DNA of 64,000 bases from Candidatus Polarisedimenticolia bacterium (GCA_036505635.1 DASXTC010000021.1:124032-188031), one strand, 5' to 3'. Positions 20,216 to 40,746 are shown, counted from the first letter of the stretch. Translations and numbers: made by a program. The notes: generated from the sequence alone by a model not told the origin.

Positions 20216-20224
20216 ACGACCGCG

Positions 20225-22096: not shown

Positions 22097-22208
22097 GACC
22101 GCGCTCGCGGCGCCTGTCGCGCTCCCGGCGGGGCCCTGGTCATGACAGCGCCACCGGCATGAGTTATCATCGCGCCCCGGTCAGGCTGCCCGCCGGGGAG
22201 AGGAGCTC

Positions 22209-22622: not shown

Positions 22623-24034
22623 TGGCCGTCCCGCTCAAGAGGGGCCAGACACCCGAGGTGCGCGTCGAGGATCTCGCCTTCGGCGGCAAGGGGGTGGGCC
22701 GCGTGGAAGGGTTCGTCGTGCTGGTGGACGGGGGGCTCCCGGGCGATCTCGTCAAGGTGCGCGTCGAGAAGGTGCGTGGCAACTACGCCGAGGGGCGTGC
22801 CGTCGAGCTGATCGAGCCTTCGCCGGACCGCGTGCCGGCGCGCTGCGAGCACTTCGGCGTCTGCGGCGGCTGCCGCTGGCAGAACCTCCCCTACGGGATC
22901 CAGCTCGACTACAAGCGCAGGCAGGTGGTGGAGGCGCTCCGCCGACTCGGCGGGATCCCCGACCCGCCCGTGGAGCCGACGCTGCCGTCCCCCGATGAGT
23001 ACTTCTACCGGAACAAGATGGAGTTCTCCTTCGGCCGCAATGAGGGCGGCAATCTCACTCTCGGGCTGCACCCGGCCGCCAGCTACACCGATGTCTTCGA
23101 CCTGCGCCGATGCCACCTCGAGTCGGACCTGTCGAACGAGATCGTGGCCGAGGTCCGCCAGGAGTGCCGCCGCGCGGGGTTGCCCGCCTACGACGTGAGG
23201 CAGCACACGGGGTTCCTGCGCTATCTGACGGTGCGGGAGGGCAAGTTCAGCGGCGAGGTGATGGTCAACGTCGTCACCGGCGACGGCGGCGCGCGCGACG
23301 CCGAGTGGTCGGCCGAGATGAAGGGGATGGCGGCGCGCATCGCAGCGGCGCACCCTCAGATCAAGTCGTTCCTCCGCAGCGTCAACGCGAGCCGCGCCAC
23401 CGTGGCCTTCGGCCAGCGCGAAGAGGTGCTGTGGGGACAGGGGGCCATCCACGAGACCCTTCTGGAACGGACGTTCGAGATCACGGCCAACTCGTTCTTC
23501 CAGACCAACTCCAGGCAGGCCGTACGGCTCTACGGGTCCGTGCTCGAGACGGCCGGGCTGACGCGCGAGGACCGGGTTCTCGATCTCTACTCGGGCACCG
23601 GGGCGATCTCGATCCTGGCGGCGTCCCGGGCCGCGGAGGTGCGGGGGGTGGAATCGCTGGCCGAGTCGGTGCGCAACGCCGAGCGCAACGCGGCGCTCAA
23701 CTCCGTCAGCAACGTCTATTTCATATGCGGGGAGGCGAAAAAGGCGCTGGCCGCGATGGCGGGCGACCGGCGTCCCCCGACCGTGGTGATCGTCAACCCA
23801 CCGCGCGCGGGGCTCAACTCCGCCGTCATCCGCGGCGTGCTGAGGCTGCGGCCGCGACGCATCGTCTACGTGTCGTGCAACCCCACCACCCTCGCGAGGG
23901 ATCTCAAGGAGATCACGGAGCGCGACTACAAGCTGACCTCCGTGCGGCCCGTGGACATGTTCCCCCACACCTGGCACATCGAGTGCGTGGCAGGCATCGA
24001 CCTGACCGCCGCGCCCCCGGCGCCTTCCGGGTGA
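22622..24034 (+). CDS. rlmD: 23S rRNA (uracil-C5)-methyltransferase, RlmD/RumA family
   Basis: N-terminal TRAM-like domain. Fe-S cysteines CEHFGVCGGCRWQ. C-terminal SAM methyltransferase fold (LDLYSGTGAISI, nucleophile region VSCNPTT). Confidence 0.8.
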   Translation: MAVPLKRGQTPEVRVEDLAFGGKGVGRVEGFVVLVDGGLPGDLVKVRVEKVRGNYAEGRAVELIEPSPDRVPARCEHFGVCGGCRWQNLPYGIQLDYKRRQVVEALRRLGGIPDPPVEPTLPSPDEYFYRNKMEFSFGRNEGGNLTLGLHPAASYTDVFDLRRCHLESDLSNEIVAEVRQECRRAGLPAYDVRQHTGFLRYLTVREGKFSGEVMVNVVTGDGGARDAEWSAEMKGMAARIAAAHPQIKSFLRSVNASRATVAFGQREEVLWGQGAIHETLLERTFEITANSFFQTNSRQAVRLYGSVLETAGLTREDRVLDLYSGTGAISILAASRAAEVRGVESLAESVRNAERNAALNSVSNVYFICGEAKKALAAMAGDRRPPTVVIVNPPRAGLNSAVIRGVLRLRPRRIVYVSCNPTTLARDLKEITERDYKLTSVRPVDMFPHTWHIECVAGIDLTAAPPAPSG

Positions 24035-24089
24035 GCCGGCCCATCGGGCTTTGACTCACCTTCCCCGCGTATGTTTAGATCCTCCGCCT

Positions 24090-24278
24090 ATGCCGAACAG
24101 CAGCGGGACGTGGAAGACGGGCGAGAGGTGCATCCAGGCGGGCACCTACGAGTGCCTCAACTGCCGGCACCTGGGAGCCACCACTCACATCACCGTCGAG
24201 CCCGGCACGATTTTCCCCTACTGCACCGTCTGTAACCTGAAGGACAACACCTACAAGCTCCTTCCCAGGAAGCGGTGA
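24090..24278 (+). CDS. small Cys-rich zinc-ribbon protein
   Basis: 62 aa with C-x7-C-x2-C ... C-x2-C spacing (ERCIQAGTYECLNC ... YCTVCN). Confidence 0.4.
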   Translation: MPNSSGTWKTGERCIQAGTYECLNCRHLGATTHITVEPGTIFPYCTVCNLKDNTYKLLPRKR

Positions 24279-24361
24279 GCGCACGCTCCTCGAAGGGGCC
24301 CGGAAAGACCGCGGGGGCGGGTGCGCGGTCGGCCCCCCCGGCAAGCGCGACCACCGCCGGC

Positions 24362-26725
24362 ATGCGGCCGAGGTCCCGCCCGCTCATGGCGGGGATCCTC
24401 GCCGGCCTCGCGGCCGGTGGCTTCCTCCTCTACCTGTACTTCGGCGCGGGCCCCGCGCGCTTCAGCGGTCCCACCGGCGACTCCAGCGTGCTGCTCATCA
24501 CGATCGATACCCTGCGCGCCGACCATCTGGGGGCCTACGGTGACCGCGACGTCCGAACCCCCTTCATCGACACGCTGGCCGACGAGGGGGTGCTGTTCGA
24601 GAACGCCATCACGCCCGCCATCATGACTCTCCCCTCGCACGCCTCGATCCTGACGGGGACCTGGCCCCCCACGCATGGCATCCGCAACAACGGCGATTAC
24701 CGTCTGAGCCCCGGCGCCCTGACGCTGGCCGAGGTGCTGCGCGCGCGCGGACTCAGGACCGGCGCGGTGGTGGGCTCCTTCGTGCTCGACTCGATGTTCG
24801 GGCTCGACCAGGGGTTCGAGTCATACGACGACGCGCTGCCCGCGCGGTCGTCCAACCAGACCTTCTTCGCGGAGCGGCCGGCAGGCGCCGTCACCGACGC
24901 GGCGCTGAGATATCTCGGTTCGGTGAGGCCCGCGCGATTCTTCCTCTGGGTCCATTTCTTCGACCCTCATCATCCGTACACCGCGCCCACCTCCTGGCGC
25001 GAGCAGTACCCCCGCAGCGGATACGACGCCGAGATCGCCTACGTGGACTCCGAGATCGGACGGCTACTGGCCGGCATGAAGGAGATGGGGATCCGGGACA
25101 AGACACTGGTCGTGCTGGCGGCCGATCACGGCGAGGGGCTCGGGGACCACGGCGAGGAGTCGCACGGCGTGCTCCCCTACGAGGAGGAGACGCGCGTCCC
25201 GCTCATCTTCTCTCTGGCTCCGCACCTGCCGGCGGGACGCCGCGTGAAGGGGGTGGTCAGGACCGTGGACATCATGCCCACGATCCTTGAGCTCCTGAGG
25301 ATCGACCCCGAGGGAGCGGCTGCCCCCGTGCAAGGCACGCCTCTGTGGCGCCTGATGGCCGACGCGAAGGGGACGATGCCGGGCCTGCCGGCATACGCGG
25401 AGGCGATGGCGCCGCTGCTGTTGTATGGGTGGAGTCCCCTGACTGTGGTGCGGGACGACCGCTACAAGTACATCGAGGGGCCCCGACCCGAGCTGTTCGA
25501 CCTGGTCGCCGACCCTCGGGAGAAGAACGACCTGTACGCCGCGCGGGCGGACCTGGCGGCGCAGTACAAGACGAAGCTGGAGTCGCTGCGCCGGGAGGTC
25601 ACGCGAGAGGGGGCGGGAGCCGAGACGATCGCGCCCGACCCAGAGACGGAGGCGAGGCTGCGCTCCCTGGGCTACGCGACGGGAGGGGGCGCACGCCCGC
25701 CGGACTCCGGCGCGGGGGCCCTTCCCGATCCCAGGCAGATGGTGCCGGCCCTGGAGAAGATCAACCGAGTCTACGCCGCGTTTGGCTCCGGGCAGTACGA
25801 CGCCGCGGCGGCCGAGGCGCGGGAGATCCTGGCCGAGCATCCCGAGAACCGCTCGGTGCGCTTCTATCTGGCCGGGGCGCTCATGGAGACGGGACGCCAC
25901 GCCGAGGCGGCGCAGGAGTACCGGAAGATCCTCGACGCCTCCCCGAAGGACACCGAGGCGATGTCGAACCTCGGCTGGTGCCTGACCAACATGCAGCGCT
26001 TCGACGAGGCGACCGAGACGTTCCAGCGGGTGCTGGAGTTCTTCCCGGACCATATCTACGCGAAGGCGAGCCTGGCCAACATCGCCTTCATCAAGGGGGA
26101 CTACCGGGAGGCGTCACGTCTCTACAAGGAGGTCCTGCGCATCGAGCCCAACCACATGCCCTCGATCAAGACGATGGCAAAGATGTTCGAGGAGACGGGC
26201 AAGCTCGACGAGGCGGCGGTCTTCTGGGAGCACGCCACCGATGTGGACCCCGGCAACGTCGATGTGTGGATGAGCCTCGGGTGGGTCCGGTTCCAGCAGG
26301 GGAGGAACGACGACGCGCTGGCCGTGCTGGACCGCGCGAAGGAGCTCGCCCCCGACGCGCCCGAGCTTCTCGCGGCGGCAGGGGACGTGCGACTCGCGAT
26401 GGGGAAGATCGAGGAGGCCCGCGCGGACTACCAGCGGGCCATCCACCTGGCGCCGCGGCTGGCCGCCGGCTACTACGGGCTCGGGATCATCGAGGGGAAG
26501 CTGGGAGATCCCTTCAAGGCGCTCGACCTGGTCGCGCGCGCCGTGTTGCTCAACCCCGACAAGGTCGAATGGCGCGTCGACCTGGCCCACGCGCTGGTCC
26601 GGATCGGGCGCTACGGCGCCGCGGCCACCGAGCTTCAGAAGTACCTCGCGTCGGGCCAGGTCCCGCCCGAGCAGACGGAGAAGCTGCGCCAGGAGATCGA
26701 GAAGTACCGGCGCCAGCGAGGCTGA
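24362..26725 (+). CDS. sulfatase-like hydrolase/transferase (alkaline-phosphatase superfamily) fused to C-terminal TPR repeats
   Basis: N-terminal TM segment, then LLITIDTLRADHLGAYGD and LAADHGEGLGDHGE metal-site motifs. No C/S-x-P-x-R formylglycine motif. The C-terminal third is TPR-like repeats. Confidence 0.75.
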   Translation: MRPRSRPLMAGILAGLAAGGFLLYLYFGAGPARFSGPTGDSSVLLITIDTLRADHLGAYGDRDVRTPFIDTLADEGVLFENAITPAIMTLPSHASILTGTWPPTHGIRNNGDYRLSPGALTLAEVLRARGLRTGAVVGSFVLDSMFGLDQGFESYDDALPARSSNQTFFAERPAGAVTDAALRYLGSVRPARFFLWVHFFDPHHPYTAPTSWREQYPRSGYDAEIAYVDSEIGRLLAGMKEMGIRDKTLVVLAADHGEGLGDHGEESHGVLPYEEETRVPLIFSLAPHLPAGRRVKGVVRTVDIMPTILELLRIDPEGAAAPVQGTPLWRLMADAKGTMPGLPAYAEAMAPLLLYGWSPLTVVRDDRYKYIEGPRPELFDLVADPREKNDLYAARADLAAQYKTKLESLRREVTREGAGAETIAPDPETEARLRSLGYATGGGARPPDSGAGALPDPRQMVPALEKINRVYAAFGSGQYDAAAAEAREILAEHPENRSVRFYLAGALMETGRHAEAAQEYRKILDASPKDTEAMSNLGWCLTNMQRFDEATETFQRVLEFFPDHIYAKASLANIAFIKGDYREASRLYKEVLRIEPNHMPSIKTMAKMFEETGKLDEAAVFWEHATDVDPGNVDVWMSLGWVRFQQGRNDDALAVLDRAKELAPDAPELLAAAGDVRLAMGKIEEARADYQRAIHLAPRLAAGYYGLGIIEGKLGDPFKALDLVARAVLLNPDKVEWRVDLAHALVRIGRYGAAATELQKYLASGQVPPEQTEKLRQEIEKYRRQRG

Positions 26726-26735
26726 GCCCCCCGAG

Positions 26736-27575
26736 TCATCCTCTCGGATAGAGCGCCACGACCGCCGGCAGCTTCACGCGCAGGCCGGGCACCGAGTGGT
26801 CGCCCCGTCCGTCCACGTGCCACTGGCCGAAGGCGAGGTAATCGAAGCCGCCGGCGCGCAGGCTCATCTGGGACTCGAAGCCGCCGTCCAGCGACATCGC
26901 CTGCCGCACGTCGAGCGCCGGGTCCCCCGCGAGGCGGTCGGCCAGCTCCCAGAGAGTCCAGGCCCCCGCGGTGACGAGGATCAGCACGCGCTCCCGCCGG
27001 TCGACGGCCACGACGGTTCGATTGGCGTGCCACTCGCTGCGGCGGACGCGCTTCAGCCCGTCGCGGTCGAGGATCATGAACGACTGGAGCACCACCTGAT
27101 ACGGCGTCGTCGCGGGGTCGAACGGGTCGTGATCGAGATCGAGGATCGCCAGCTTCGGCCGCGCCCCTCCCGCCGCGCCCGCGGGCTCGGCCGCGAGGAT
27201 CCCCTTCCACGCCGTGATGCGGCGGGTGCCGAGGTTGCGTCCGTCCTTGACGAAGAGCCCCATCGGCCGGTGGTCCGGGTAGTACTGGCTCGCGTTGAAG
27301 ACGACGGCCGCCCCCGTCCTGGCGCGCCACTCATCGGCGTCGCGCCCGCCGCGGACGTTCGGATCCTCCGAGGCGTGATGAAGGTCGAGCCTCCAGAGCC
27401 CGGGTTCCACCCTGACGATGGCGATGTCGCGCGATCCCTTCCGGCAGCCCGCCCCGCCGTCGATCATCCGGAACTCGAGCCCCGGCGCCAGTGTCCGCCA
27501 GGGGGCCGGTGCCGTCGGCGCGCCAGGAAGGGCGAGGAGGACCAGGCTCAGAATGGCGATCCCGGGCAACCGCAT
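26736..27575 (-). CDS. secreted phosphodiester glycosidase-like (NAGPA/DUF2233 family) protein
   Basis: Start at MRLPGIAILSLVLLALPGAP (signal peptide). Remainder consistent with the DUF2233 beta-rich fold. Confidence 0.55.
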   Translation of the reverse strand: MRLPGIAILSLVLLALPGAPTAPAPWRTLAPGLEFRMIDGGAGCRKGSRDIAIVRVEPGLWRLDLHHASEDPNVRGGRDADEWRARTGAAVVFNASQYYPDHRPMGLFVKDGRNLGTRRITAWKGILAAEPAGAAGGARPKLAILDLDHDPFDPATTPYQVVLQSFMILDRDGLKRVRRSEWHANRTVVAVDRRERVLILVTAGAWTLWELADRLAGDPALDVRQAMSLDGGFESQMSLRAGGFDYLAFGQWHVDGRGDHSVPGLRVKLPAVVALYPRG

Positions 27576-27733
27576 CGACGAACCCCTCCTCCTGCCGGCG
27601 GGAGCATGTTCCGACAAATGGATGCCGGGTTGCAAGCGGCCCCGAGGCGGGACCCGGAATCTTTCTCCTTGCGACTCCATAACTTACAGGTGTATTCTCG
27701 GCAATAGACCCTTCGCGACCGGAGAGATCGCCG

Positions 27734-28468
27734 ATGGCGCAATGGCTCGTCTTTTTCGCCGGAATCCTCCTGGGCGCGGCCATCGCGGCGCTCCTGGCCC
27801 GGCAGGCTCACCGCCGCGCGCGCCGCGCCGAAGTCGAACGGCTCCGCCTGCTCGCCCACGACCTGCGCACGCCCCTCTCCTCCATCACGGCCTACAGCGA
27901 GATCCTGGCGGACGAGGAGGAGAGCGACCCGGCGCAACGCGCGCGCTTCCTCGGATTCATCCACGAGGAGACGCTGCGCCTTGGCGGGATCATCGACGAG
28001 CGGATCGCCGGCGACCGGGCCGCAGCCCCGGTTGCGGCCACGGCCGGGACGCCCCGGCACGCGCCCGAGAGCCCTCCCGCCCGCGGCCGCACCATCCTCG
28101 TTGTGGACGACGACCGGTTCATCGCGGACGCGACCCGGACGCTGCTGGCAAGGGAAGGGTACGAGGCGCTGGGCGCCTACGGCGGTGACGAGGCGCTCGA
28201 GAGGGCCCGGGGCTCCCGCCCCGATGTGATCGTGATGGATCTGATGATGCCCGGCATCAGGGGGGACGAGGCGCTTCGGCGCCTCAGGACCGATCCCGCG
28301 ACCCGCGACATCCCCGTGATCATCACCACGGGCGAGGTGGGCGCCCAGGCGCTCGAGGGGGCCGCCGAAGTCCTGGCCAAACCGATCACCCGCGAGGCGT
28401 TGCTGGCCGCGATCGACCGGGCCGCATGCGCTGCGGTCACACAGGGGGACAGGAGGGACGAGTCTTGA
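27734..28468 (+). CDS. membrane-anchored HisKA (phospho-acceptor) - receiver protein lacking an HATPase_c domain
   Basis: N-terminal TM helix. H-box LRLLAHDLRTPLSSITAYSEIL. Receiver domain ILVVDDDRF...DVIVMDLMMPG...KP. At 244 aa there is no room for N/G1/G2 ATPase boxes. Confidence 0.7.
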   Translation: MAQWLVFFAGILLGAAIAALLARQAHRRARRAEVERLRLLAHDLRTPLSSITAYSEILADEEESDPAQRARFLGFIHEETLRLGGIIDERIAGDRAAAPVAATAGTPRHAPESPPARGRTILVVDDDRFIADATRTLLAREGYEALGAYGGDEALERARGSRPDVIVMDLMMPGIRGDEALRRLRTDPATRDIPVIITTGEVGAQALEGAAEVLAKPITREALLAAIDRAACAAVTQGDRRDES

Positions 28469-28833
28469 AGAAGGTCCTGGTCTGCGACGACGAGCCGCAC
28501 ATCCTGGAGGCGGTGGCCTTCGTCGCGCGCAAGGAGGGATACACGGTTCTGACCGCCGAGGACGGCGAGCAGGGCCTCCGCCTGGCGCGCGAGGAGCGTC
28601 CCGGGCTCGTGCTGCTCGACCTGAACATGCCGATCAAGTCGGGATACCAGGTCTGCGAGGAGATCAAGAGCGATCCGGGCATGAAGGGCACGTACGTGAT
28701 CATGCTCACCGCCAAGGGGCAGGAGTCGGACCGCGCGCGCGGGGTGGCCGCGGGCGCCGACGAGTACATCACGAAGCCTTTCTCCCCGCGAAAGTTGCGC
28801 CAGAGGCTGGTGGAGATCCTGGGGACGCCGTGA
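28465..28833 (+). CDS. single-domain response regulator (CheY-like receiver)
   Basis: KVLVCDDEPHILE...LVLLDLNMPIKSG...ITKPF. Start at TTG 28465, preceded by GGAGG at 28453-28457. An alternative ATG at 28426 overlaps the upstream gene. Confidence 0.7.
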   Translation: MKKVLVCDDEPHILEAVAFVARKEGYTVLTAEDGEQGLRLAREERPGLVLLDLNMPIKSGYQVCEEIKSDPGMKGTYVIMLTAKGQESDRARGVAAGADEYITKPFSPRKLRQRLVEILGTP

Positions 28834-28844
28834 GGTGACGCACC

Positions 28845-30821
28845 GTGGGCGCTGACAACGAGACCGAGCTGCGCAGGCGCCTCGACGGCGTCACGGCCGA
28901 GCTGCTCTCCACGTACGAGGAGATCGAGGCCCTCACGACGGTGGCGGAGATCGCGGCCAGCAGCACCGACGTCGCGTCGGTGGGCCGGCGGATCCTCGAG
29001 GAGGCGGCCGGCCTCCTTCAGGCCGACGTCGCCTTCGTCATCTACACCGACCGGGAGCTCAAGGGCGAGGAGCCCGCCCCCGCCGGTGTCACGAACGGGG
29101 AGCGCGACGCGATCGCGGCCGCGCTGGCGAGGTGGCTGTCGGAGCAGCCCCGGCCCATCCTGATGGCCCCCTTCAGCGAAGGGGCCGGGATCCCCCACGC
29201 CCCCGACGCGCTGCTGGCCGTGCCGCTGCGGTGCGAGGGGCTGGTGCTGGGAGCCATGTGCCTGGGCCGGCGCGGCGAGGGGGCGACCTTCACGGCCGGC
29301 GATCTGAAGATCCTCTCGGTGCTCGGTTCGAGCGCGGCCTCCGTGCTCCTCCAGCGCAAGAACCTCGACCTGGTCAGATTGTCGCGCGGTCTGGAGGAGC
29401 GCAACCAGCTCCTCAAGGGGATCCTCGCCATCAGCCGCGAGATCGCCTCCACGCTGGATCTCGACCGGCTCCTGCACGCGCTGTCGAACCTCCCCACCCG
29501 CGCGCTGGGGTTCGACCGGTGCGCGGTCCTCCTGGACGAAGGCGGCAGCCGGCGGCTGCGCGCCGTGTCGGGAGCCGCGCACGTGGATCGAGGAGACACC
29601 GAGATGAAGTCGCTCGAGCGCGCGCTCGACTGGGTGGCCGGCCGGGGTACGCAGGTGACCGCGCAGGAGCGGGCGAGCGAGGGGGGGACGACCCTCGTGG
29701 CCGATCCTCCCGAGGCTGCCGCCCAGCTCGCCGCGCACATGAAGATGGCCGGGGCGCGGTCGTTCCTGGCCATCCCGATGTCCGATGACCAGGGGCTCCT
29801 GGGCGTTCTGTCGCTGGAGAGCGGCGCGGAGGGGTTCCTGGATGAGCGGCGACTGGAAGGAGCCACGATCCTTGCCAACCAGGCCACCGTCGCGCTGCGC
29901 AACGCGCAGCTTTACGGGGAGATGCCTCTCATCCGGCTGCTCGGGCCGTTGCGCGGCGGGCTGGCGAAGGTGCGGACACTTCCCCGAAGGAAGCTCGCGG
30001 CCTGGGGAGCCGCGGCCCTCGTGCTGATGGCGATCCTGATCTTCGGGCGCTGGAACCTGAAGGTTCCGGGCAACGTGACCATCCTGCCGTCCCGCATCGT
30101 GCTGGTGAGCGCCCGCGTGCGCGGCGTGATCCTCGAGGTGGGCCCCTATCACGAGGGGGATCGGGTCCCGAAGGGCGCGGTGCTCGCGCGGCTCGAGGTG
30201 CCCGACCTGAGGATGCGTCTCAACGAGGCGACCTCACAGGAGGAGAGCGCGCTGCGGGGCATGACCCGGCTGCAGGCCGAAGGACGGGCGGCGGATCTCG
30301 CCGTGGCGCGCATCGAGCTGGAGCGGTGGCGCAACGAGCGCGCGTTGCTGGCGGAGCGGATCGAGGAGGCGTCGATGCGCGCCCCCGTGGATGGGCTCCT
30401 CCTGACGCCGCGGCTGGAGGAGCGCGCGGGTGAGCTGCTGGAAGTGGGGGGGGTCTTCTGCACGCTGGCCGGCCTCGACCGCCTGCGCGTGGAGATCGCC
30501 GTCAAGGAGGTCGATGCCGACATCCTGGTGAAGCGCGGGCCCGATGGGCGGGAGCCGGCCGCGGCGGCCGCGCTCAAGTTCAGCGCCTTCCCCGCCGTCG
30601 ATTACCGGGCCCGGATCGTGAAGGTGCGCGCGGCGGCCGAGGTGATCGAGGGGGCGCGCTCGCTCGTGGCCGAGGGGGAGATCGAGGAGGGCCCGGAGGG
30701 AACCGGTGGCCTCAAGCCGGGGATGACCGGCTTCGCGCGGATCGACGCGGGCCCCAGGGCGCTCATCTCGATCATCCTGCGCAAACCGTACCGTTTCGTG
30801 AGGAGCATGATCTGGCTATGA
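28845..30821 (+). CDS. GAF-GAF-TM-HlyD-family membrane fusion protein
   Basis: Two N-terminal GAF-like regulatory domains. One TM helix (AAWGAAALVLMAILIFG). The C-terminal half has HlyD/biotin-lipoyl-like adaptor features (VTILPSRIVLVSARVRGVILEV..., coiled coil, RAPVDGLL, GMTGFARI). Confidence 0.7.
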   Translation: MGADNETELRRRLDGVTAELLSTYEEIEALTTVAEIAASSTDVASVGRRILEEAAGLLQADVAFVIYTDRELKGEEPAPAGVTNGERDAIAAALARWLSEQPRPILMAPFSEGAGIPHAPDALLAVPLRCEGLVLGAMCLGRRGEGATFTAGDLKILSVLGSSAASVLLQRKNLDLVRLSRGLEERNQLLKGILAISREIASTLDLDRLLHALSNLPTRALGFDRCAVLLDEGGSRRLRAVSGAAHVDRGDTEMKSLERALDWVAGRGTQVTAQERASEGGTTLVADPPEAAAQLAAHMKMAGARSFLAIPMSDDQGLLGVLSLESGAEGFLDERRLEGATILANQATVALRNAQLYGEMPLIRLLGPLRGGLAKVRTLPRRKLAAWGAAALVLMAILIFGRWNLKVPGNVTILPSRIVLVSARVRGVILEVGPYHEGDRVPKGAVLARLEVPDLRMRLNEATSQEESALRGMTRLQAEGRAADLAVARIELERWRNERALLAERIEEASMRAPVDGLLLTPRLEERAGELLEVGGVFCTLAGLDRLRVEIAVKEVDADILVKRGPDGREPAAAAALKFSAFPAVDYRARIVKVRAAAEVIEGARSLVAEGEIEEGPEGTGGLKPGMTGFARIDAGPRALISIILRKPYRFVRSMIWL

Positions 30822-31957
30822 GGAAAGGGTGCGCTCTGCTCGTCTGGGGGATGGCGCTCGCTGCGGCGGGGGCCGGCGGCTGCGACCGCTCGCGTCAGGC
30901 CGAGGCGGCGGCCGCCTCGACCCCGGGCGGGCCGGCGCCGGTGGAGGCGACCCCCACGCTCCCCTCCGCGCCCGCTCCCCGGACCATCGCTGCGGTGGGG
31001 GGCCGGCCGATCCCCCGCACGCTCCTGCTCGACAGCCACCTGCTGGTGGAAAGAGACGTGGCGGTGACCGCGCGGCGCGACGGCTTCGTCGAGACGATCC
31101 ACGTGGACCGCGGCCAGCTCGTCACGGAGGACGACCCACTGGCAACTCTCGAGCACGGCGATCTCCTCGTCAGCGAGAAGGAGGCGATGCTGGAGCTGGA
31201 GAAAGAGCAGGCCTCCTTCGAGCGCGCGGCGAGGCTTCACGAACAGGAGATCATCCCGAGAGAGGAGTTCGAGCAGGCGCGTCTGCGGCGCGACGCCGCG
31301 CAGAAGGCGCTGGAGCGGATCCGCTACGAGATCGGCAAGTGCGTCATCAGGGCGCCATTCGACGGCGTGGTCTCGGGACGCTTCGTCGAGAAGGGCCAGG
31401 TCATCAAGGAGGACGACGGAAGGCCGTTGTTTCAGGTGACGGCGCTCAGGCCGTTGCTGGCGCGCGTCTATCTTCCGGAGTGGGCGCTGTTCGGGGTCCG
31501 CGAGGGGCACCGCGTCGGCCTCGCGCCGGCCGCCTTCTTTCCGGCCGGCGGGGATCCCGACGGAGGCGGCATCGAGGCGAAGGTGCGCTGGATCAACCAT
31601 GTCCTGGACGCGGCCTCCGGGTCGGCCGAGATGCTCGTGGAGATCACCGGCGGGCCCGGCGCGGCCCGCCTGCGCCCCGGCATGTCGGTCCAGGTGCGCA
31701 TCGATCTGTCCTATGGGGCGGGAGCCGCCGGCGGTGGAGACATCGTGAGCCTGCCGCGCGAGGCGGTCGGCCCGTCTGAGCCCTCCCCGGGCCAGCGGAT
31801 CGAGCTTCAGGTCCTGACCAAGGGGGGCGCCATCGAGGCGCGCTCGGTCGTGCTGGGCTTCGTCGGGGACGAGCGTGTCGAGGTGCGACGCGGTCTGTCG
31901 GCGGGCGAGAAGGTCGTCCTCGGACCGGCGGCGCCTCCCCCTGCCGCCGTCCCATGA
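30818..31957 (+). CDS. HlyD/RND-adaptor-family periplasmic lipoprotein
   Basis: Lipobox AAGAGGC. Coiled-coil hairpin and beta-barrel adaptor segments (IRAPFDGVVSGR, RPGMSVQVRI). ATGA overlap with the upstream gene. Confidence 0.75.
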   Translation: MRKGCALLVWGMALAAAGAGGCDRSRQAEAAAASTPGGPAPVEATPTLPSAPAPRTIAAVGGRPIPRTLLLDSHLLVERDVAVTARRDGFVETIHVDRGQLVTEDDPLATLEHGDLLVSEKEAMLELEKEQASFERAARLHEQEIIPREEFEQARLRRDAAQKALERIRYEIGKCVIRAPFDGVVSGRFVEKGQVIKEDDGRPLFQVTALRPLLARVYLPEWALFGVREGHRVGLAPAAFFPAGGDPDGGGIEAKVRWINHVLDAASGSAEMLVEITGGPGAARLRPGMSVQVRIDLSYGAGAAGGGDIVSLPREAVGPSEPSPGQRIELQVLTKGGAIEARSVVLGFVGDERVEVRRGLSAGEKVVLGPAAPPPAAVP

Positions 31958-34149
31958 GCGCAACTCCTCGCCTGGCGCGGGGGGTCACGATCACCCGGCG
32001 GCAGGTCGGCGAGGATGAGGTCTACTATCTCGTCCGCGAGCCCCGCGGCGGCTCGTTCCTCCGCATGGGGGAGATCGAAGCCACGGTCCTGCGGCTGCTC
32101 GACGGCTCCCGGACCATCGAGGAGGTCTCCCGGGCGCTGGATCTGTCCCACGAGACGAACGTCGAGGCGCAGGTCATCGAGGAGTTCATCGGCTCGATGA
32201 CCCGCAAGGGGCTCGTGGAGAAACGCGGCTTCGATCCTGCGGCGTTCCGGCAGGAATGGCTCCAGCAGGCGCGGTCGCGGCGCAGGAGCCTCGGACAGCT
32301 CCTGGGCACCCTGGCCACGTTCAAGCTCCACCTCATCAATCCGCTGGGACTCTTCTCCCGTATCGTCGGCCCGCTGAGCTTCATCTGGTCTCCCGCGTTC
32401 GTCGTCGCGTCGCTCGCGCTGATGGCGGTGGCCGGGGTGATGGGGTTCGTCTATAGCGCCGAGGTGCTCGCATCGTCGCGAGTCTTCTGGGCCGGCATGA
32501 CCTCCTCGGCGGCCGCGTTCGCCTCCAACGCGCTCCTCTTCTACGTGATCTTCTTCGTGGTGATCGCGCTGCACGAGCTGTCCCACGGGCTGACGTGCGC
32601 CCATTTCGGCGGCAAGATCACCGACATGGGATTCATCCTCTTCTACCTGCAGGTGCCGGGCGTGTACTGCGACATCACCGATGCCTACTCGTTCGAGAAG
32701 CGCAGCCAGCGCCTCTGGACCACGGTGGCCGGCTGTTACTCGGGCCTCGTGCTGGCCTCCTTCGGGATGATCCTGTGGTGGGCGACCGAGCCGGGCGACC
32801 TGCTCAACAAGGCGGCCATCGTGCTGATGCTCGTGGGGGGGCCGCCGGTCGTGATGTTCAACTGGAACCCGCTGCTCAAGCTCGACGGCTACTACATTTT
32901 GATGGATCTGCTCGAAGCGCCGAACCTGATGGACAACTCGAGAAAGCACCTCGGGTACCTCTTCAAGTCGAGGGTGCTGCGGGTCCCGGTGGAGCCGGTG
33001 AGCGTCCCACCGCGTCTCCGGACGGCGTACGTGGTTTATGGGATCGCCAGCATCGCCTTCATCGCGCCATTCACGATCTACATGCCGGTGATCGTCTACT
33101 ACATCTTCTCCCGCCTGGTGGGGGAGGCGCTGGCGCTGCCGATCGCCGCGGTGATGGCGTACAGGATGGTGATGGTCTACGCCAGGAAGCTCTTCGAGAC
33201 GCTCAAGTACACATGGCTGTCGCACCGGCCCGCTCAGGCGGGAGGCGAGACAGGCCGGCTCCGTCCGGGGATGATGGGGGCCGGGGCCGCGGCGGGGCTC
33301 GCGCTCCTGGCGTTCGGGCCGCGGTTCGCGGTGAGAGCCGAGGGGACCGGCACGCTCGAGCCGCTCGAGAGGATCGAGGTGCGTGCCGCCTGGCCGGGAT
33401 TCGTCGCCGAGTCGGGAGGCTCCGGCGCGATGCCGGCGGAGGGAGCGCTGGTGCGGGCGGGGGATCCCCTGGTGCGCCTCGAGAACCTCGAGGTGGATGC
33501 CGGACGCCGCTCGGTCGATCTGGAGCTGGCGGCGCTGCGCGCGGACCTCTCCCGTCTGGAAGCGCGACGCGAGCCGGCACAGGCCATGATGAGACGCTCG
33601 GAGGAGCGGGCGCTTCAGGGGGACGCGCTCGTGCTGGCGAGGCGCGTGGAGGAGCTCACGCTGCGGGCGCCGATTGCCGGCGTGGTCCTCACGCCACGTC
33701 TTCAGGATAAGCTCGGGGCCTATCTCGGGTCGGGAGAGACCTGGTGCGTCATCGGGAGGATCGATCGTCTGCGCGTGCGCGTTCCGCTCAGCGAGAAGGA
33801 CCTGGGCCTCATCGACGAGACGAGCGAGGCCGGCGTCAAAGGGCCGCACCTGCCCGGAGAGATCTTCCGGGGACGCGTGACGCGAATGCCGGCGGGCAGA
33901 AGGCCCGCCCGGCCGGGGCTGCAGGGCCACCAGCCCCAGCCCGTGACCGCCGCCATGACGGCAACGCCCGGTGAGGGGGTCTCGCCGGTCTCCGGCTCGC
34001 TCCAGGTCGAGGTCGAGGTGGACAACGCGTCGGGGCTCCTGCGCCCCGGGATGACGGCCCAGGTCCGCATCTACGGCGAGCGCATGAGCCTCGCCGCCCA
34101 CGCCCTGCGCTGGGCGCACCGCCTTTTCAAGGGGAAGGTGTGGTGGTGA
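31954..34149 (+). CDS. three-domain fusion: PqqD/RRE-like N-domain - site-2-protease (peptidase M50) membrane domain - HlyD-like adaptor domain
   Basis: Residues 1-100 resemble a PqqD-type peptide-binding domain (EDEVYYLVREPRGGSFLRMGEIEATVLRLLDGSRTIEEV). HExxH is present as HELSHG inside a TM helix, plus the S2P NPLLKLDG motif. The C-terminal 250 aa have coiled-coil and RAPIAGVVLTP ... RPGMTAQVRI adaptor motifs. Confidence 0.7.
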   Translation: MSATPRLARGVTITRRQVGEDEVYYLVREPRGGSFLRMGEIEATVLRLLDGSRTIEEVSRALDLSHETNVEAQVIEEFIGSMTRKGLVEKRGFDPAAFRQEWLQQARSRRRSLGQLLGTLATFKLHLINPLGLFSRIVGPLSFIWSPAFVVASLALMAVAGVMGFVYSAEVLASSRVFWAGMTSSAAAFASNALLFYVIFFVVIALHELSHGLTCAHFGGKITDMGFILFYLQVPGVYCDITDAYSFEKRSQRLWTTVAGCYSGLVLASFGMILWWATEPGDLLNKAAIVLMLVGGPPVVMFNWNPLLKLDGYYILMDLLEAPNLMDNSRKHLGYLFKSRVLRVPVEPVSVPPRLRTAYVVYGIASIAFIAPFTIYMPVIVYYIFSRLVGEALALPIAAVMAYRMVMVYARKLFETLKYTWLSHRPAQAGGETGRLRPGMMGAGAAAGLALLAFGPRFAVRAEGTGTLEPLERIEVRAAWPGFVAESGGSGAMPAEGALVRAGDPLVRLENLEVDAGRRSVDLELAALRADLSRLEARREPAQAMMRRSEERALQGDALVLARRVEELTLRAPIAGVVLTPRLQDKLGAYLGSGETWCVIGRIDRLRVRVPLSEKDLGLIDETSEAGVKGPHLPGEIFRGRVTRMPAGRRPARPGLQGHQPQPVTAAMTATPGEGVSPVSGSLQVEVEVDNASGLLRPGMTAQVRIYGERMSLAAHALRWAHRLFKGKVWW

Positions 34150-35023
34150 GACGGCTCAGGTCGAGGCGGCCGCCGGCGGTGGGAGGGCACCAGTAGTAGC
34201 CCCCCGAGATCGGACGCGAGAAGCTGAACAGGGCGTCGACGATCCCGTCCTCCAGGCCAAGCATCCGCCGCAGCACGCGCTCGAACAGGTCGAGGGAGTG
34301 CCCGTACGCGATGAACTCGAGCCCCTGCTGGCGAGCCGTAGCCCAGGGCATGGAGCGCCGGACCATGAACGCGGGCGGATCGTAGCTCTCCTGGGCTGTG
34401 CGCTTCACGTGGGCCGACGCGGGCGCCTCCTCGATCTCGGCGTTCGTGTCCATACGGCGGCCCACCACGGCGTCGCGCCGGTCGGCCGCGAACCCCCGGA
34501 ACCGGCGCAGGTCGTGTACCCAGCGTTGCACGGCCACGAAGCTCGAGCCGGTCATCCCGCCGCCGGCCGGGACCAGGGCCGCCTCCGCGGCCGCGTCCCC
34601 GCGCGGATTCTCGGTGCCGTCCTCGTAGCCCGTGAGGTCGCGCCCCCCCGCATAGGTGAACGTGTCCACCGAGTCGTCCAGGAGGAACGCTCCGTCCACC
34701 AACGTCGCGACCCGATCGGTCATCTCGAACAAATCCCCGGGATTCGCTCCGCGCAGGAAGATCCATAGCGCCTGCTGAGTGGAGGGCACGGTGGACCCGG
34801 GCCCCGAGAGCCCGGGGAAGGTGCGCAGGCCGGGCACGTCACTTCCAAGCGAACGCACGACCGGTTCTCCCAGACCGACGACTCCCTGGTCTAGAGCGAA
34901 ACCATCCCCCAGCCGGCGAAGGGCGGCGCGCGGATCGGCCTGCGCCGCGAGGCGGAAGGTCAGAGAGCGGCCGAGCGCCGGCGGAGCCGCCAGGATTCCC
35001 GGCTGGGACAGATCCGTCTTCAT
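34127..35023 (-). CDS. Dyp-type haem peroxidase (B-type, cytoplasmic)
   Basis: Start at MKTDLSQPGILAAPP. The C-terminal 3' end converges on and overlaps the 31954-34149 gene. The 5' start has an ATGA overlap with the upstream hydrolase gene. Confidence 0.75.
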   Translation of the reverse strand: MKTDLSQPGILAAPPALGRSLTFRLAAQADPRAALRRLGDGFALDQGVVGLGEPVVRSLGSDVPGLRTFPGLSGPGSTVPSTQQALWIFLRGANPGDLFEMTDRVATLVDGAFLLDDSVDTFTYAGGRDLTGYEDGTENPRGDAAAEAALVPAGGGMTGSSFVAVQRWVHDLRRFRGFAADRRDAVVGRRMDTNAEIEEAPASAHVKRTAQESYDPPAFMVRRSMPWATARQQGLEFIAYGHSLDLFERVLRRMLGLEDGIVDALFSFSRPISGGYYWCPPTAGGRLDLSRLTTTPSP

Positions 35024-35814
35024 CCGTGCTCTCCCTCCTCGAGTCGCCGGCGCAGGACGGAATAGAAGTCGTCGCGAACGCCCCTCTCCAGCCACGGGTA
35101 GTGCCCGCAGCGCTCCCACTCATGGTACTCCAGCGCCGGCAGGTGAGGCGCGAGGCTCGCCCGGATGAGCCGCCCCGGGTGCGGATCGAGCGCGCCGTGA
35201 AGCATGATCACGGGCGCATCGATCGCCGCGAAGGCAGCCGGGTAGACCCCCGCGGCCTGGAGCCGGAGCATGTCGGCCCAGGTCTCCTGGTACGCCCGCG
35301 CGTCGCATCCCTCCACCCCCAGCCCGCCGGCCTCGGGATCGCATGAGTAGAGCGGCAGCAGCAGGTCGCCCATGACCCCGAGACGCTCGTCCGGATCGGG
35401 AAACTCCACGGAGAGCCGTTCCAGTCGCCGCCGGAGAGGCCCGTCCATGCGCTCCTCCCTCACCGCCCGCAACCGATCGCGGGCCGCCCTGTCGAAGGTG
35501 CCGCACCCGATGAGGACGATTGAGGTGGCGAAGCCGGGGTGCGCCGCGGCGTAGGCGAGCGCCAGCATGGCTCCCCAGGAGTGGCCGACGAGGGCCGGCC
35601 GCGCGTCCGGGCGCCGGCGCACGAGCTCGTGGAGGTCCTCGACGTGCCGGGCCACGGTGAGTGGCTCGCCGGAGCTGCCGCGCTGGAACGGTTCGAGGAT
35701 CCGGAACGAATCGGCGAGCTCGCGCGCCACCGGCGCCAGGTATCCCGGCGCTCCCGGGCCGCCGTGCAGGAGGACCACGAGCGGCCCCGATGTCCCGTGC
35801 CCGCGAACTCTCAT
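35020..35814 (-). CDS. alpha/beta hydrolase (proline-iminopeptidase-like)
   Basis: VVLLHGGPGA and nucleophile elbow GHSWGA. Confidence 0.75.
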   Translation of the reverse strand: MRVRGHGTSGPLVVLLHGGPGAPGYLAPVARELADSFRILEPFQRGSSGEPLTVARHVEDLHELVRRRPDARPALVGHSWGAMLALAYAAAHPGFATSIVLIGCGTFDRAARDRLRAVREERMDGPLRRRLERLSVEFPDPDERLGVMGDLLLPLYSCDPEAGGLGVEGCDARAYQETWADMLRLQAAGVYPAAFAAIDAPVIMLHGALDPHPGRLIRASLAPHLPALEYHEWERCGHYPWLERGVRDDFYSVLRRRLEEGEHG

Positions 35815-35865
35815 GGATGCCGGCGACGAAGGGCCAGCCGCTTCACGCCGGAGGGAGCGAGCCCC

Positions 35866-36360
35866 TCACCTCTCCCCCTCCCAGTAGTCCACGCCATCCT
35901 TCAGATGCGTGAAGTGGCGGACCGAGTCGGCGGACGGCGGGCGTCCCCCATGCGCCCCGGCGATCACCCCGAGCTTTCCGGAGTCCGGGTATTCCACGAC
36001 CTCCGGCAGCTCCATCGTGCTCACGGCCAGGTATCGAAGGGGCGCCTTGGAGTCGTTGATGATCTGGTGGGCGGATTCGCGTCCCGGCGGCAGGGAGATG
36101 AAGTCTCCCTTGCGCACCGCGCGGGTCGTCCCACCCACCCTCAGGGAACCTTCGCCCTCGAGGATGAAGAACATCTCCTCGTTGCCCCGGTGCGCGTGGT
36201 AGGGGAAGGCCCGCTTGCCCGGGGGCACGACCGTGACGTTGAACCCGAGCATCTTCGAGTCGAGCTGCGCTCCCACCCGCGCTATCTCGCACTCGAAGCT
36301 CTCGCCGTGGGATCGCTTCTCGAACGGCACGTCCTCGATGTTCAATACCTGCGACTTCAT
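35866..36360 (-). CDS. cupin-domain protein
   Basis: Two-His cupin motif 1 (YHAHRGNEEMFFILEG) and motif 2 (GDFISLPPGRESAHQI). Start at MKSQVLNIEDV. Confidence 0.75.
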   Translation of the reverse strand: MKSQVLNIEDVPFEKRSHGESFECEIARVGAQLDSKMLGFNVTVVPPGKRAFPYHAHRGNEEMFFILEGEGSLRVGGTTRAVRKGDFISLPPGRESAHQIINDSKAPLRYLAVSTMELPEVVEYPDSGKLGVIAGAHGGRPPSADSVRHFTHLKDGVDYWEGER

Positions 36361-36643
36361 CCGCACCTCCTTCCTGGCGCAATGGGCCGAACATAACACA
36401 GAAGGTCACGCACGCTACCGCCCGGCCCATCGACGCACCATCTCGTGATGGGCCGATCAGGTGGACGGCAACCGACTGGATCGACTGCGCCGACGGCTCA
36501 CCGGGGTGCTGGGCGGCATAGGCGTCCACCGTCAGGCGGTGCGTGGGGCCGTCCGCTCCGGACACGAGCGCCCCGCATCCAATGCAGTGGATGGGATCCT
36601 GGCGCGTGGTCATCGGCGATGCTCCGCCGGCGGCGGACGCGGG

Positions 36644-37171
36644 TCAGGCGGCGCCGCGCTCGATGGTGTAGGACAACATCACGATGCCGCTCGGCAGGGC
36701 CTTGCTCTCGGAAAGCCGGAGCCGGGCCGCGTGCGCGCCGGTTTCCACGAGCGGGATCCCGCGTCCCAGGAGCACCGGGATCAGGCCGACCTCCACGGTG
36801 TCCACGAGATCGGCGTCGAGGAGACTGCGGAACAGTACCCCGCCGCCCATCAGCCAGATGTCCTTGCCTGGCTCGGCCTTGAGCGCCGCGACGGCCTGCT
36901 CGGCCGCCGTGGACACGATCGTGACGCCGGGGTGGTCGGCCGCGCGCAATGTCCGGGAGAACACGATCGCGCGCATCCCGGGCATCCCGCCGCCGGATCC
37001 CTGGCTGAGGGCGATCTCGAACGTGCGCCGTCCCATGAGGACCGTGTCGAACGCCTTGAAGAAGGCGGCGAAATCGATGGCCGGATCCATGATGATCCAG
37101 TCGTACTCGCCGCCGGGACCGGCGATGTAGCCGTCCAGGCTCATCGCGACGCTGTATCTGACTCGCCGCAT
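36644..37171 (-). CDS. dihydrofolate-reductase-family protein (RibD C-terminal domain type)
   Basis: MRRVRYSVAMSLDGYIAGPGGEYDW ... LMGRRTFE ... IWLMGGG pattern typical of the YwjB/RibD_C family. Confidence 0.75.
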   Translation of the reverse strand: MRRVRYSVAMSLDGYIAGPGGEYDWIIMDPAIDFAAFFKAFDTVLMGRRTFEIALSQGSGGGMPGMRAIVFSRTLRAADHPGVTIVSTAAEQAVAALKAEPGKDIWLMGGGVLFRSLLDADLVDTVEVGLIPVLLGRGIPLVETGAHAARLRLSESKALPSGIVMLSYTIERGAA

Positions 37172-37727
37172 GGCGGTCTCCCTGGTCGTCACCGCCGCCC
37201 GTGAGAGAGCGGGCGCGGCGCGCACAGCCTACCACTCTCGGCGCCGCGGATGGGTCCAGGCGCTCGCGCTCGGTGGCCTGGCCGGCATCGGCATGGAGAT
37301 CTTCTCGAACCTCGTCAGCCAGCCGCTCATCACGCGGCTCACCGGGTCGCCGCCGGACCTCTCCGACTTCCGGCCGCTCGTGGGGGACCTTAGGCTCCTG
37401 CTCCTCATGCTGGTGCCGATGTGGCTGCTGGCGGCCTTCGGCGAGGAGATGGTCTATCGAGGCTATCTGATGAACCGGCTTGCCGGCCTGTTCCACGGCA
37501 CGCCCAGAGGCTGGCTGGCGAGCCTGATCGCGGTCAGCGCGTTCTTCGGCTGGTCCCACCAGAGCCAGGGGCTCACCGGCATGCTGCAGGAGGGGTTCGC
37601 GGGGCTCCTGCTGGGAGCGCTCTACCTCGGCTGCGGCCGCACCTTGACCGTGCCCATCGTCGCCCACGGCGCAGCCAACACGCTGGCGTTCGTGCTGATC
37701 TTCCTCGACCTCTATCCAGGCGTGTGA
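37170..37727 (+). CDS. CPBP-family (CAAX protease / bacteriocin-processing) intramembrane metalloprotease
   Basis: The three CPBP motifs are present: EExxxR (FGEEMVYRG), FxxxH (FGWSH) and HxxxN (HGAANT). The 5' end is uncertain because ATG 37170 would overlap the divergent neighbour's start. An internal start near MEIFSNLV at about 37296 is possible. Confidence 0.55.
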   Translation: MAVSLVVTAARERAGAARTAYHSRRRGWVQALALGGLAGIGMEIFSNLVSQPLITRLTGSPPDLSDFRPLVGDLRLLLLMLVPMWLLAAFGEEMVYRGYLMNRLAGLFHGTPRGWLASLIAVSAFFGWSHQSQGLTGMLQEGFAGLLLGALYLGCGRTLTVPIVAHGAANTLAFVLIFLDLYPGV

Positions 37728-37739
37728 AGGCGCCGCGCG

Positions 37740-38126
37740 TCACGGTGGTCCGACATGCCAGCAGACCCCGGCCAGGTCGATGAAGTTTGCCTCGCGGCCC
37801 CAGGGGACCTCGCTTGGAGGACTCATCCTGAAGCCAGGGAACCTCCGGGCCAGCTGCTTCGCCTCGACCTCCTGCCACCAGGTGTCGAGGTCCGGGACCT
37901 CGAGCTTGATCATGAAGTTGCCGGCGAACGCCGGCTCGTTGAAGTCTTGCAGAATGAATCTCGCGGCCCCGCAACGGAACCCGGCATAGCCGCCGCTCGC
38001 CCAGAGCTCCTCGAACCCGAGCTCCCGAAAAAGCTCGCGACTCTTCTCGAAGTCACTGCCACCTGGAACAAAGGGCAGGAGTGCTGTCGGCTCGACCATC
38101 ATCACACCTCGACGCTCTGCGTCCAC
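37740..38126 (-). CDS. VOC-family (glyoxalase/bleomycin-resistance fold) protein
   Basis: 128 aa with the typical VOC pattern. Confidence 0.55.
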   Translation of the reverse strand: MDAERRGVMMVEPTALLPFVPGGSDFEKSRELFRELGFEELWASGGYAGFRCGAARFILQDFNEPAFAGNFMIKLEVPDLDTWWQEVEAKQLARRFPGFRMSPPSEVPWGREANFIDLAGVCWHVGPP

Positions 38127-38147
38127 TTCCCGCTTGCTCCTGACTTG

Positions 38148-38630: not shown

Positions 38631-38707
38631 GGCCCGTTCCTGTCCTTCCAACTCAGGGCCTCCTCTATCGGTTAGACTCCCGTCATGACCCGCCGCCGCT
38701 TCACAGA

Positions 38708-39292: not shown

Positions 39293-39486
39293 CGGCCTGA
39301 TGCTCCCTCACCGCTCGACGGGCCGACATGACCACGGCCCCGCGGCAGCCGCGACATGGTGGTCGCGGTCCTCTTGAGCGGGTAGCTGGAAGGAGTGTTT
39401 ACCACCAAATCACGCTGCTGTGAAGGCCCCGCGCTGGAGTCCGGCATTTCCCTTCACTTGACGATCGATGCCCTGAGATGAAAGTG

Positions 39487-40716: not shown

Positions 40717-40746
40717 TTGACCCCGCCGGTGAGCCACTCCTATAAT
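40717..40746 (+). promoter_or_regulatory. sigma70-type promoter candidate for sucCD (TTGACC - 18 nt - TATAAT)
   Basis: TTGACC at 40717-40722 and a perfect TATAAT at 40741-40746. GAGAGGAG RBS at about 40759. sucC ATG at 40775. Confidence 0.5.

Follow-up and report, generated by a model that had tools for sequence, protein, structure and literature searches.

What do three consecutive proteins with HlyD-type periplasmic adaptor domains do when no pump stands beside them, and on what does an intramembrane protease fused to one of them act? The question is raised by five co-directional genes (g1 to g5) at positions 27734–34149, + strand, of a 64,000-nucleotide stretch of DNA from Candidatus Polarisedimenticolia bacterium (GCA_036505635.1 DASXTC010000021.1:124032-188031), the whole of which we call the window. 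An initial annotation, made by a model from the sequence alone, had offered three functions for them: an apparatus for the maturation and export of a peptide like the RiPPs (peptides made by the ribosome and modified after translation), a signalling device based on regulated intramembrane proteolysis, or an envelope-spanning scaffold. We find that g3–g5 belong, as its local copy, to a three-gene operon family that is widespread in soil Acidobacteria, unnamed and uncharacterised, and we give about an even chance to the reading that this family couples leader-guided cleavage of a small peptide to its release across the envelope, as a diderm elaboration of the EpeP/YydH-type M50 peptidases.

A protease and three adaptors without a pump

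All five open reading frames (ORFs) called in the initial annotation were confirmed, and their third-position GC content (GC3) of 0.89–0.92, in a window of ~69% G+C, is of the coding type, which bears out five genes on the same strand. The ATGA overlaps proposed between the last three genes are present in the junction sequences of g3/g4 and g4/g5, and the domain calls for all five proteins, the triple fusion in g5 included, hold up against Pfam and NCBIfam, homologues and fold. The conserved trio and the parts of its third protein are listed here, with TM denoting a transmembrane helix and RRE a RiPP recognition element.

28845–30821, + strand: g3, cytoplasmic GAF-GAF sensor with a TM at residues 383–401 and a periplasmic adaptor of the PAP/HlyD kind; it opens the conserved trio (Pfam GAF twice, HlyD_D23)
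30818–31957, + strand: g4, lipoprotein periplasmic adaptor, second gene of the trio (signal peptide, lipobox AGG-C22, TIGR01730)
31954–34149, + strand: g5, triple fusion of RRE, M50/site-2 protease and adaptor, third gene of the trio (Pfam, AlphaFold2, fold comparison)
31954–32223, + strand: g5 residues 1–90, cytoplasmic RRE (PqqD-fold), presumed leader-peptide binding site
32311–33243, + strand: g5 residues ~120–430, six-TM core of the M50/site-2 protease (HELSH at 32572–32586, NPLLKLDG at 32866–32889)
33322–34146, + strand: g5 residues 457–731, periplasmic adaptor (lipoyl, 56-residue alpha-hairpin, beta-barrel), entered through a seventh TM at ~436–454

The HELSH and NPLLKLDG motifs of g5 (residues 207–211 and 305–312) have the HExxH and LDG geometry that had been proposed for an M50 enzyme, and H207, E208, H211, N303, P306, D311 and G312 are invariant across 33 homologues of 21–60% identity, which argues that the g5 protease is under selection as an enzyme. 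Against the Pfam M50 family (PF02163) the window protein scores 25.1 bits, with a gathering score of 27.2, and 30 of the 33 homologues match at E < 0.01. AlphaFold2 models have a predicted local distance difference test score of 83 for the full length and 88 for the N-terminal half; in them the middle part of g5 has the core fold of the site-2 proteases, with RseP and SpoIVFB as structural neighbours, and the M50 assignment is upheld by motif and fold alike.

The PqqD/RRE call fared less evenly. With PF05402 (PqqD) the window protein reaches E = 0.0037 and 18 bits, below the gathering score of 23.4, and so the call is sub-threshold by sequence in this one protein; it stands on the family, in which 12 of the 33 homologues match (best E value 5.8e-7), and on the fold, a three-stranded sheet and three-helix winged helix being present by fold comparison. 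The residues that are near-invariant in the RREs of the family, P30, D50, G51 and F78, are retained. A sequence search of the PDB with the N-terminal half of g5 gave no match, and fold comparison alone succeeded. Hydrophobicity and the model together give seven TM helices, with the RRE side cytoplasmic and the adaptor side periplasmic.

All three proteins of the trio carry the AcrA/MexA/MacA-like hairpin, lipoyl and beta-barrel parts found in tripartite pumps (TriABC-OpmH, MacAB-TolC, AcrAB-TolC). The adaptor part of g5 retrieves MacA (in MacAB-TolC), MexA, AcrA and EmrA in Foldseek, at E values of 1e-12 to 1e-9. Its C-terminal match to HlyD_D23 scores 38.9 bits and that of g3 to the same barrel-sandwich model 35.6 bits (gathering score 30), and g4 matches TIGR01730 (RND_mfp) over its full length at 143 bits, with a cut-off of 94.9. 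The alpha-hairpin inserts are 58 residues long in g3, 61 in g4 and 56 in g5. More than one adaptor paralogue per operon is known from TriAB. Unlike tripartite pumps and secretion systems of type I, however, the trio has no inner-membrane transporter and the window no OEP gene, and unlike efflux adaptors g3 (GAF-GAF) and g5 (RRE-M50) carry large cytoplasmic or membrane domains, of which we know no example among efflux adaptors.

That neither a pump nor an outer-membrane factor lies within at least 10 kb of the module had been claimed at the outset. Pfam searches of every GC3-supported gene between 17160 and 45577 found no ABC, RND, MFS or OEP domain, and the whole window has no OEP match, no pair of Walker-A and LSGGQ motifs and no ORF of at least 900 residues, the size of an RND pump. 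The claim is therefore correct from 17.1 to 45.6 kb by Pfam and throughout the window by motif and size, and with no transporter nearby a routine efflux operon is not supported. Neither a C39 nor an ABC domain, by which a PCAT (peptidase-containing ABC transporter) exporter would be recognised, occurs in the five proteins or their neighbours. Across ~85 related loci, one ORF out of 803 within 8 kb of the protease gene is ABC-like; the pump is thus absent in the relatives too, and its absence is a property of the system rather than an accident of this window. An OEP (TolC-family) gene adjoins the protease gene in six of these loci (L002, L023, L024, L043, L065 and L068).

The trio in related loci and the peptide genes beside it

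The related loci came from a scan of metagenome contigs with an alignment of g5 homologues, which returned at least 594 loci; 80 of these, at 25–30% identity, were kept, and their ORFs were labelled using domain queries derived from the window proteins. A scan of genome contigs with one sequence gave only two partial adaptor matches (L005 and L006). Homologues of g5 number 188 at E < 1e-5, and the RRE-M50 half matches 5,898 clusters at 50% identity with E ≤ 1e-10, most of the top matches being 680–860 residues long, which is the adaptor-fused length.

Among 43 distant loci with 3.5 kb or more of upstream sequence, 32 have the trio of GAF-GAF-TM-adaptor, adaptor and RRE-M50-adaptor in this fixed order and on one strand. 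Four further loci have a ~700-residue protein with a HlyD C terminus in the position of g3, together with another adaptor gene; the GAF match is weak in two of them and missing from the other two. We considered whether the loci without the GAF protein use ABC exporters and rejected the idea, as both genes upstream of the protease gene encode HlyD-domain adaptors in all four loci checked. The other large neighbours checked are WD40, S9 peptidase and SecA proteins and one without a match, none of them transporters. Nearer to the window, g1–g5 occur in the same order in L001, L087, L088 and L089, whose M50-adaptor proteins are ~52–54% identical to g5 and whose downstream flanks differ; a phosphodiester glycosidase gene lies divergently upstream of the module in them. 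The module is therefore conserved as a unit, which the initial annotation had made a condition of its reading: five genomes of the window lineage, Ca. Polarisedimenticolia with its relatives, keep all five genes together, and most of the ~85 distant loci keep g3–g5. The inclusion of g1 and g2 in the conserved core did not survive the comparison: they are found in the five window-clade loci only and are lineage-specific accessories.

Clustering of the neighbouring ORFs brought out a sigma-54 activator (39 loci), a STAS protein (15 loci) and, in the gap from the protease gene to the activator, a small ORF. The activator, of ~470 residues with REC, Sigma54_activat and HTH_8 domains, is convergent with and downstream of the protease gene, and it is adjacent in 31 of the 50 loci with enough downstream DNA. 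The STAS gene (L004 4709–5047 and 14 other loci) encodes a single-domain, anti-sigma-antagonist-like protein, is mostly divergent from the GAF-adaptor gene and is absent from the window; no kinase or phosphatase that might partner it was found.

The small ORF is present in most relatives and runs convergent to the protease gene. Its product consists of a conserved 22-residue leader (MSIQKKSLISxLxTTKKAxVAS), a linker rich in Ser, Thr and Pro, and a locus-variable cationic tail, often made of tandem repeats such as (QKLGT)8, (RVAAS)9, (LAKGT)10, (QTAKHPGL)7, (KSNAL)8 and (PVARVT)12; the leader that goes with one Terriglobia homologue of g5 reads MSIQKKSLISTLKTTKKANVAS. A profile of the leader finds 33 ORFs (E values of 1e-16 to 1e-4), all of them lying directly downstream of the protease gene and running towards it. 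A Shine-Dalgarno-like sequence of the GGAG/AGGAG type precedes the start in 33 of 33 (32 ATG and one GTG), and a sigma-54-type element, TGGCA-N7-TGC(A/T), stands at −64 to −82 in about 28. At least 9 of the 11 sigma-54 consensus positions are matched ahead of 17 of the 33 peptide genes, as against none of 33 on the opposite strand, which served as control. Sigma-54 dependence of the trio itself was rejected, the element occurring in 1 of 31 cases and in 1 of 31 controls.

Against a database of 5.8 billion proteins, the leader profile returned 1,453 clusters of 47–86 residues, all of them "hypothetical" and without Pfam domains; where organism names are given they are Terriglobales and Sulfotelmatobacter. 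Eight candidate peptides matched no NCBIfam family. Reverse look-ups from two of the database peptides led to the same arrangement in three of three places, namely activator, peptide, facing M50-adaptor, adaptor and GAF-GAF-adaptor, with STAS divergent. The tails contain 17% Ala, 12% Arg, 10.5% Lys, 9% Val, 9% Ser and 8% Thr, with a net charge of ~+0.2 per residue, while Cys, Trp, Tyr and Asp are nearly absent. In the database, leaders that are all but identical are followed by repeats of different copy number (QTAKHPGL once in one case and seven times in another), and tandem pairs of peptide genes combine a common leader with different tails or repeat numbers (L007 12335–12706 and 12832–13155, minus strand; L052 12934–13474; L076 12120–12871). 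The differences in repeat number suggest rapid diversification driven by slippage. In other clades, other small basic peptides occupy the same slot: in L007 and L008 they read MKEVTIKLTDEQRKQVKDATGKEI... and then (DRANPLALGAEETA)n, in four loci there is a 34-residue peptide, MEKKSKPVKGKK...VKPLIKF, and two copies of a 39-residue peptide are found in L090, which at 36% identity is the outgroup closest to the window clade.

Judged from its leader and its position, the small peptide is the likely substrate of the trio in these relatives. No conserved modifying enzyme was found in the neighbourhoods of the related loci; because of this, and because Cys is almost lacking, the peptides are probably unmodified. 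Among the functions first offered, peptide maturation and export is accordingly the one favoured, as most distant loci carry a peptide gene, and the description as RiPP-like was overstated. A RiPP cluster combines a precursor with a modifying enzyme, whereas the window has no precursor and the relatives have a precursor-like gene with no conserved modifying enzyme beside it. In L094, a long-read metagenome contig and one of the three places reached by the reverse look-ups, the M50-adaptor gene next to a leader peptide (7805–9495) is split into three ORFs of 73, 221 and 258 residues, and is either a pseudogene or the product of assembly frameshifts.

Proposed mechanism and competing explanations

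For neither g3 nor g5 does any NCBIfam model attain its cut-off. The model nearest to g5 is the M50 protease of the daptides (NF041824), at 161.5 bits with a cut-off of 300; the alignment joins g5 residues 5–411 to model positions 1–374 of 379 and starts at both N-termini. The model of the YydH/LiaK (EpeP) protease (NF058609) gives 43.8 bits, with a cut-off of 225. There are no daptide tailoring enzymes among the window neighbours, and no radical-SAM epimerase gene in the window or the ~85 related loci. Like EpeP/YydH, the daptide protease and TglG/TmoG, which remove the leader from a small ribosomal peptide, g5 is a multi-pass M50 intramembrane metalloprotease. Unlike the EpeP and daptide proteases, it has a C-terminal periplasmic adaptor, partners two more adaptors and belongs to a diderm host, and the candidate cargo differs from theirs in being an unmodified cationic repeat peptide without tailoring genes. 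Neither the curated families nor the literature searched yielded a description of a fusion between an M50/site-2 protease and HlyD, which agrees with the initial view that the combination is not a described system.

In Bacillus subtilis the epipeptide precursor is processed by EpeP, a stand-alone M50 peptidase for which a role in its export has been proposed as well, the ABC transporter of that operon serving immunity (PMC10885120, PMC12871923). By analogy, the fusion of an adaptor to an EpeP-like enzyme would be a plausible solution for a diderm. In the cleavage and release that we propose, the cytoplasmic RRE of g5 would bind the N-terminal leader of a small ribosomal peptide, and the intramembrane active site, of the site-2-protease type, would cut the peptide. 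The adaptor domains of g3, g4 and g5, with alpha-hairpins matched in length, would build a periplasmic tube, and the tube would pass the product on to an outer-membrane channel of the TolC kind, whose gene would lie elsewhere. No pump driven by ATP or by the proton-motive force would take part, the membrane domain of the protease replacing the inner-membrane transporter, and the GAF-GAF part of g3 may gate the machine on a cytoplasmic ligand. In most Acidobacteria the cargo would be encoded next door by a sigma-54-dependent gene; in the window lineage the machine would be under phosphorelay control and the cargo gene would lie elsewhere.

Such a module would function most like a leader-peptidase-coupled bacteriocin exporter, albeit one that has another protease and three adaptors and lacks an ATPase. 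As proposed, it resembles the exporters that combine a PCAT with a HlyD-type adaptor and TolC (CvaAB-TolC) in coupling leader recognition and cleavage to release through an adaptor tube. With the double-glycine bacteriocin and microcin systems it would have in common a small unmodified cargo whose leader is conserved and whose core varies, as well as, at some loci, a TolC-family channel gene next door. It is unlike the PCAT exporters in that there is no ABC and no C39 domain, that an M50 enzyme is fused to the adaptor, that three adaptor paralogues are present instead of one, and that the peptides have no evident GG cleavage motif.

Several points weigh against this mechanism. The substrate in the window genome is hypothetical, as no candidate peptide gene, sigma-54 activator or promoter was found in the 64-kb window or beside the module in four sister genomes. 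Of the ~85 loci, no more than 6 have an OEP gene next to the protease gene. The energy source for translocation is not evident, and because the tails are strongly cationic, export would run against the membrane potential. To our knowledge, site-2 proteases are not established as translocators, and no experiment on any member of the family was found in the literature searched.

The explanation that ranks next, which we consider unlikely, is a device for signalling by regulated intramembrane proteolysis. The adaptors would then form an envelope sensor or scaffold, the M50 enzyme would cleave a membrane-associated regulator or the small peptide, and the fragment would act as an intra- or intercellular signal, which in this lineage would feed into the HisKA-REC/REC phosphorelay or be controlled by it. 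Site-2 proteases classically act in this way, and g5 shares catalytic fold and motifs with its structural neighbours RseP and SpoIVFB (with SpoIVFA/BofA), in which extra-membrane domains or partners control access to the active site. Those enzymes, however, have PDZ or CBS domains and anti-sigma or pro-sigma substrates, whereas the core of g5 lies between an RRE and an adaptor, and neither a sigma nor an anti-sigma substrate is linked to it. Signalling parts do surround the trio (GAF-GAF in g3, HisKA-REC and REC here, STAS and the sigma-54 response regulator in other clades, and an FHA-GAF histidine kinase at 19805–22096 that is syntenic in L088), but the neighbourhoods contain no conserved anti-sigma factor or membrane-tethered transcription factor. 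The lack of a sigma-54 promoter at the trio would fit a standing sensor. Against a sensor, the RRE is a leader-binding module typical of peptide maturation, the AcrA/MacA-type hairpins and the six adjacent TolC-family genes point to a conduit, and the hypervariable repeat tails resemble an effector and not a conserved signal.

Improbable in our view is a role in self-protection or turnover, in which the RRE-M50 part would capture and degrade membrane-active cationic peptides, the cell's own or foreign, and the adaptors would extract them from the envelope, for immunity and not for secretion. The neighbouring peptides are polycationic and rich in Ala and Val, like membrane-active peptides, but their conserved leader is of a cytoplasmic type that matches a cytoplasmic RRE, which implies recognition before export and not after it. 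Intramembrane proteases can clear membrane-embedded peptides, as RseP does in degrading remnant signal peptides, and the retention of the machine without a peptide gene in the window lineage would fit a defensive role; the tight, convergent linkage of peptide and machine elsewhere is instead that of producer loci. Finally, it is very improbable that the adaptors are ordinary accessories of an unlinked ABC, RND or MFS pump with the M50 fusion incidental: although g4 is a full-length RND_mfp-type adaptor above the NCBIfam cut-off, NCBI labels g5 "efflux RND transporter periplasmic adaptor subunit" and the stretch inspected is 64 kb of a 254-kb contig, adaptors are normally operonic with their pump and neither the neighbours of the ~85 loci (the single ABC-like ORF among 803) nor the window (no RND-sized ORF) supplies one, the invariant protease motifs mark the fusion as functional, and across thousands of clusters the fused form is the usual one.

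Returning to leader-guided cleavage and release, we tentatively extend it to a broader proposal, namely that the trio may be an unrecognised pump-less trans-envelope secretion system with the intramembrane protease as its inner-membrane engine, that its cargo may be a new and very large acidobacterial family of hypervariable, cationic repeat peptides that bear a leader and are induced through sigma-54, and that the window may hold a rewired version whose cargo gene has moved or changed and whose control has passed to a phosphorelay. The peptides could be antimicrobials, kin-recognition signals or matrix-binding peptides. If the model of cleavage and release holds, diderms could do without an ABC exporter in processing ribosomal peptides and releasing them, and the role of site-2 proteases would widen from signalling to secretion. 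Few soil phyla are as abundant as the Acidobacteria or as poorly understood, and their peptide-based interactions are little known; here more than 1,000 clusters of unannotated small cationic repeat peptides have been uncovered in them. The clear expression signals and the dedicated activator make the peptide genes testable in cultivable Terriglobia. For annotation, the names "efflux RND transporter periplasmic adaptor subunit" and "multidrug efflux pump subunit AcrA" stand on thousands of entries that are pump-less fusions of protease and adaptor.

The window lineage and its surroundings

In the window lineage, two co-transcribed genes ahead of the trio stand in for the sigma-54 activator and peptide gene of the relatives.

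27734–28468, + strand: g1, HisKA-REC protein anchored in the membrane and lacking an ATPase domain (TM at residues 4–22, His42, Asp169)
28465–28833, + strand: g2, single-domain response regulator (REC, Asp52; Pfam REC, E 5e-30)

Pfam finds HisKA (E 3e-10, His42 within HDLRTP) and REC (E 6e-22, Asp169) in g1, and the HATPase_c domain of a two-component histidine kinase is absent from it. Since g1 has a phospho-acceptor His and a receiver Asp and no catalytic domain, its action is limited to passing phosphate on or taking it off. The g1/g2 junction is a TTGA overlap, and the TTG start of g2 at 28465 gives a protein of 122 residues, the length seen in its orthologues (121–122 residues in L001, L087, L088 and L089); an in-frame ATG at 28426 is an alternative start. 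The FHA-GAF kinase at 19805–22096 is possibly the phosphodonor for the ATPase-less g1. From these genes, a phosphorelay probably controls the machine in the window, and the peptide on which it acts is probably encoded outside this region. The g5 RRE keeps the residues of the family and folds confidently, from which we infer that it still binds a peptide.

The initial annotation had seen no small precursor-like ORF in or next to the module and no identified substrate, and this holds for the window. A hidden Markov model of the leader gave a chance match only (E = 3.4) on its six-frame translations, Tandem Repeats Finder and a peptide-level repeat scan found no tandem-repeat peptide ORF in it, and its intergenic small ORFs with Shine-Dalgarno sites yielded no precursor. 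A scan for the sigma-54 consensus found no site in the 64 kb. Small ORFs conserved among the five window-clade loci were just fragments of known genes and antisense ORFs.

Outside the window clade, L090 has a 73-residue ORF (5405–5626, minus strand) that encodes a HisKA-like DHp helix pair alone (SVAHDLRNLAYRL...) directly upstream of the sigma-54 activator, and L008 has a longer HisKA-like ORF in the matching place. A derivation of g1 from a DHp ORF of the L090 type and the REC of the activator was considered and dropped, the similarity being too weak (E 1e-4 and 0.09). An anti-phage defence function for the module was likewise rejected: PADLOC gave generic REC-domain matches only for g1 and g2, and its models matched nothing in g3–g5.

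Downstream of the protease gene, sucCD (succinyl-CoA ligase) and ndk follow at 60–300 bp in L087, L088 and L089 and at ~1.3 kb in L001. In the window sucCD/ndk are found at ~40.7–43.2 kb, and the intervening ~6.6 kb (34127–40744) looks like a lineage-specific insertion, with genes for a Dyp peroxidase, an alpha/beta hydrolase, a cupin, a RibD_C reductase, a CAAX protease, a GNAT protein and an ICMT/PEMT-like methyltransferase. The Dyp-type peroxidase ORF (34127–35119, minus strand, taken as the longest ORF) is convergent with g5 and overlaps its 3' end by 23 nucleotides. Upstream, 19805–27680 holds genes for the FHA-GAF-HisKA-HATPase kinase, a protein with a CBS pair, a TRAM/U5 RNA methyltransferase, a protein that combines sulfatase and TPR parts and, divergently, a NAGPA phosphodiester glycosidase, in the order in which they also precede the module in L088. 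Farther away, the GC content dips to 0.61 at 6001–8000, as against ~0.69 for the window, and a 217-residue ORF with an Ala/Lys-rich C-terminal tail lies there (7050–6397, minus strand).

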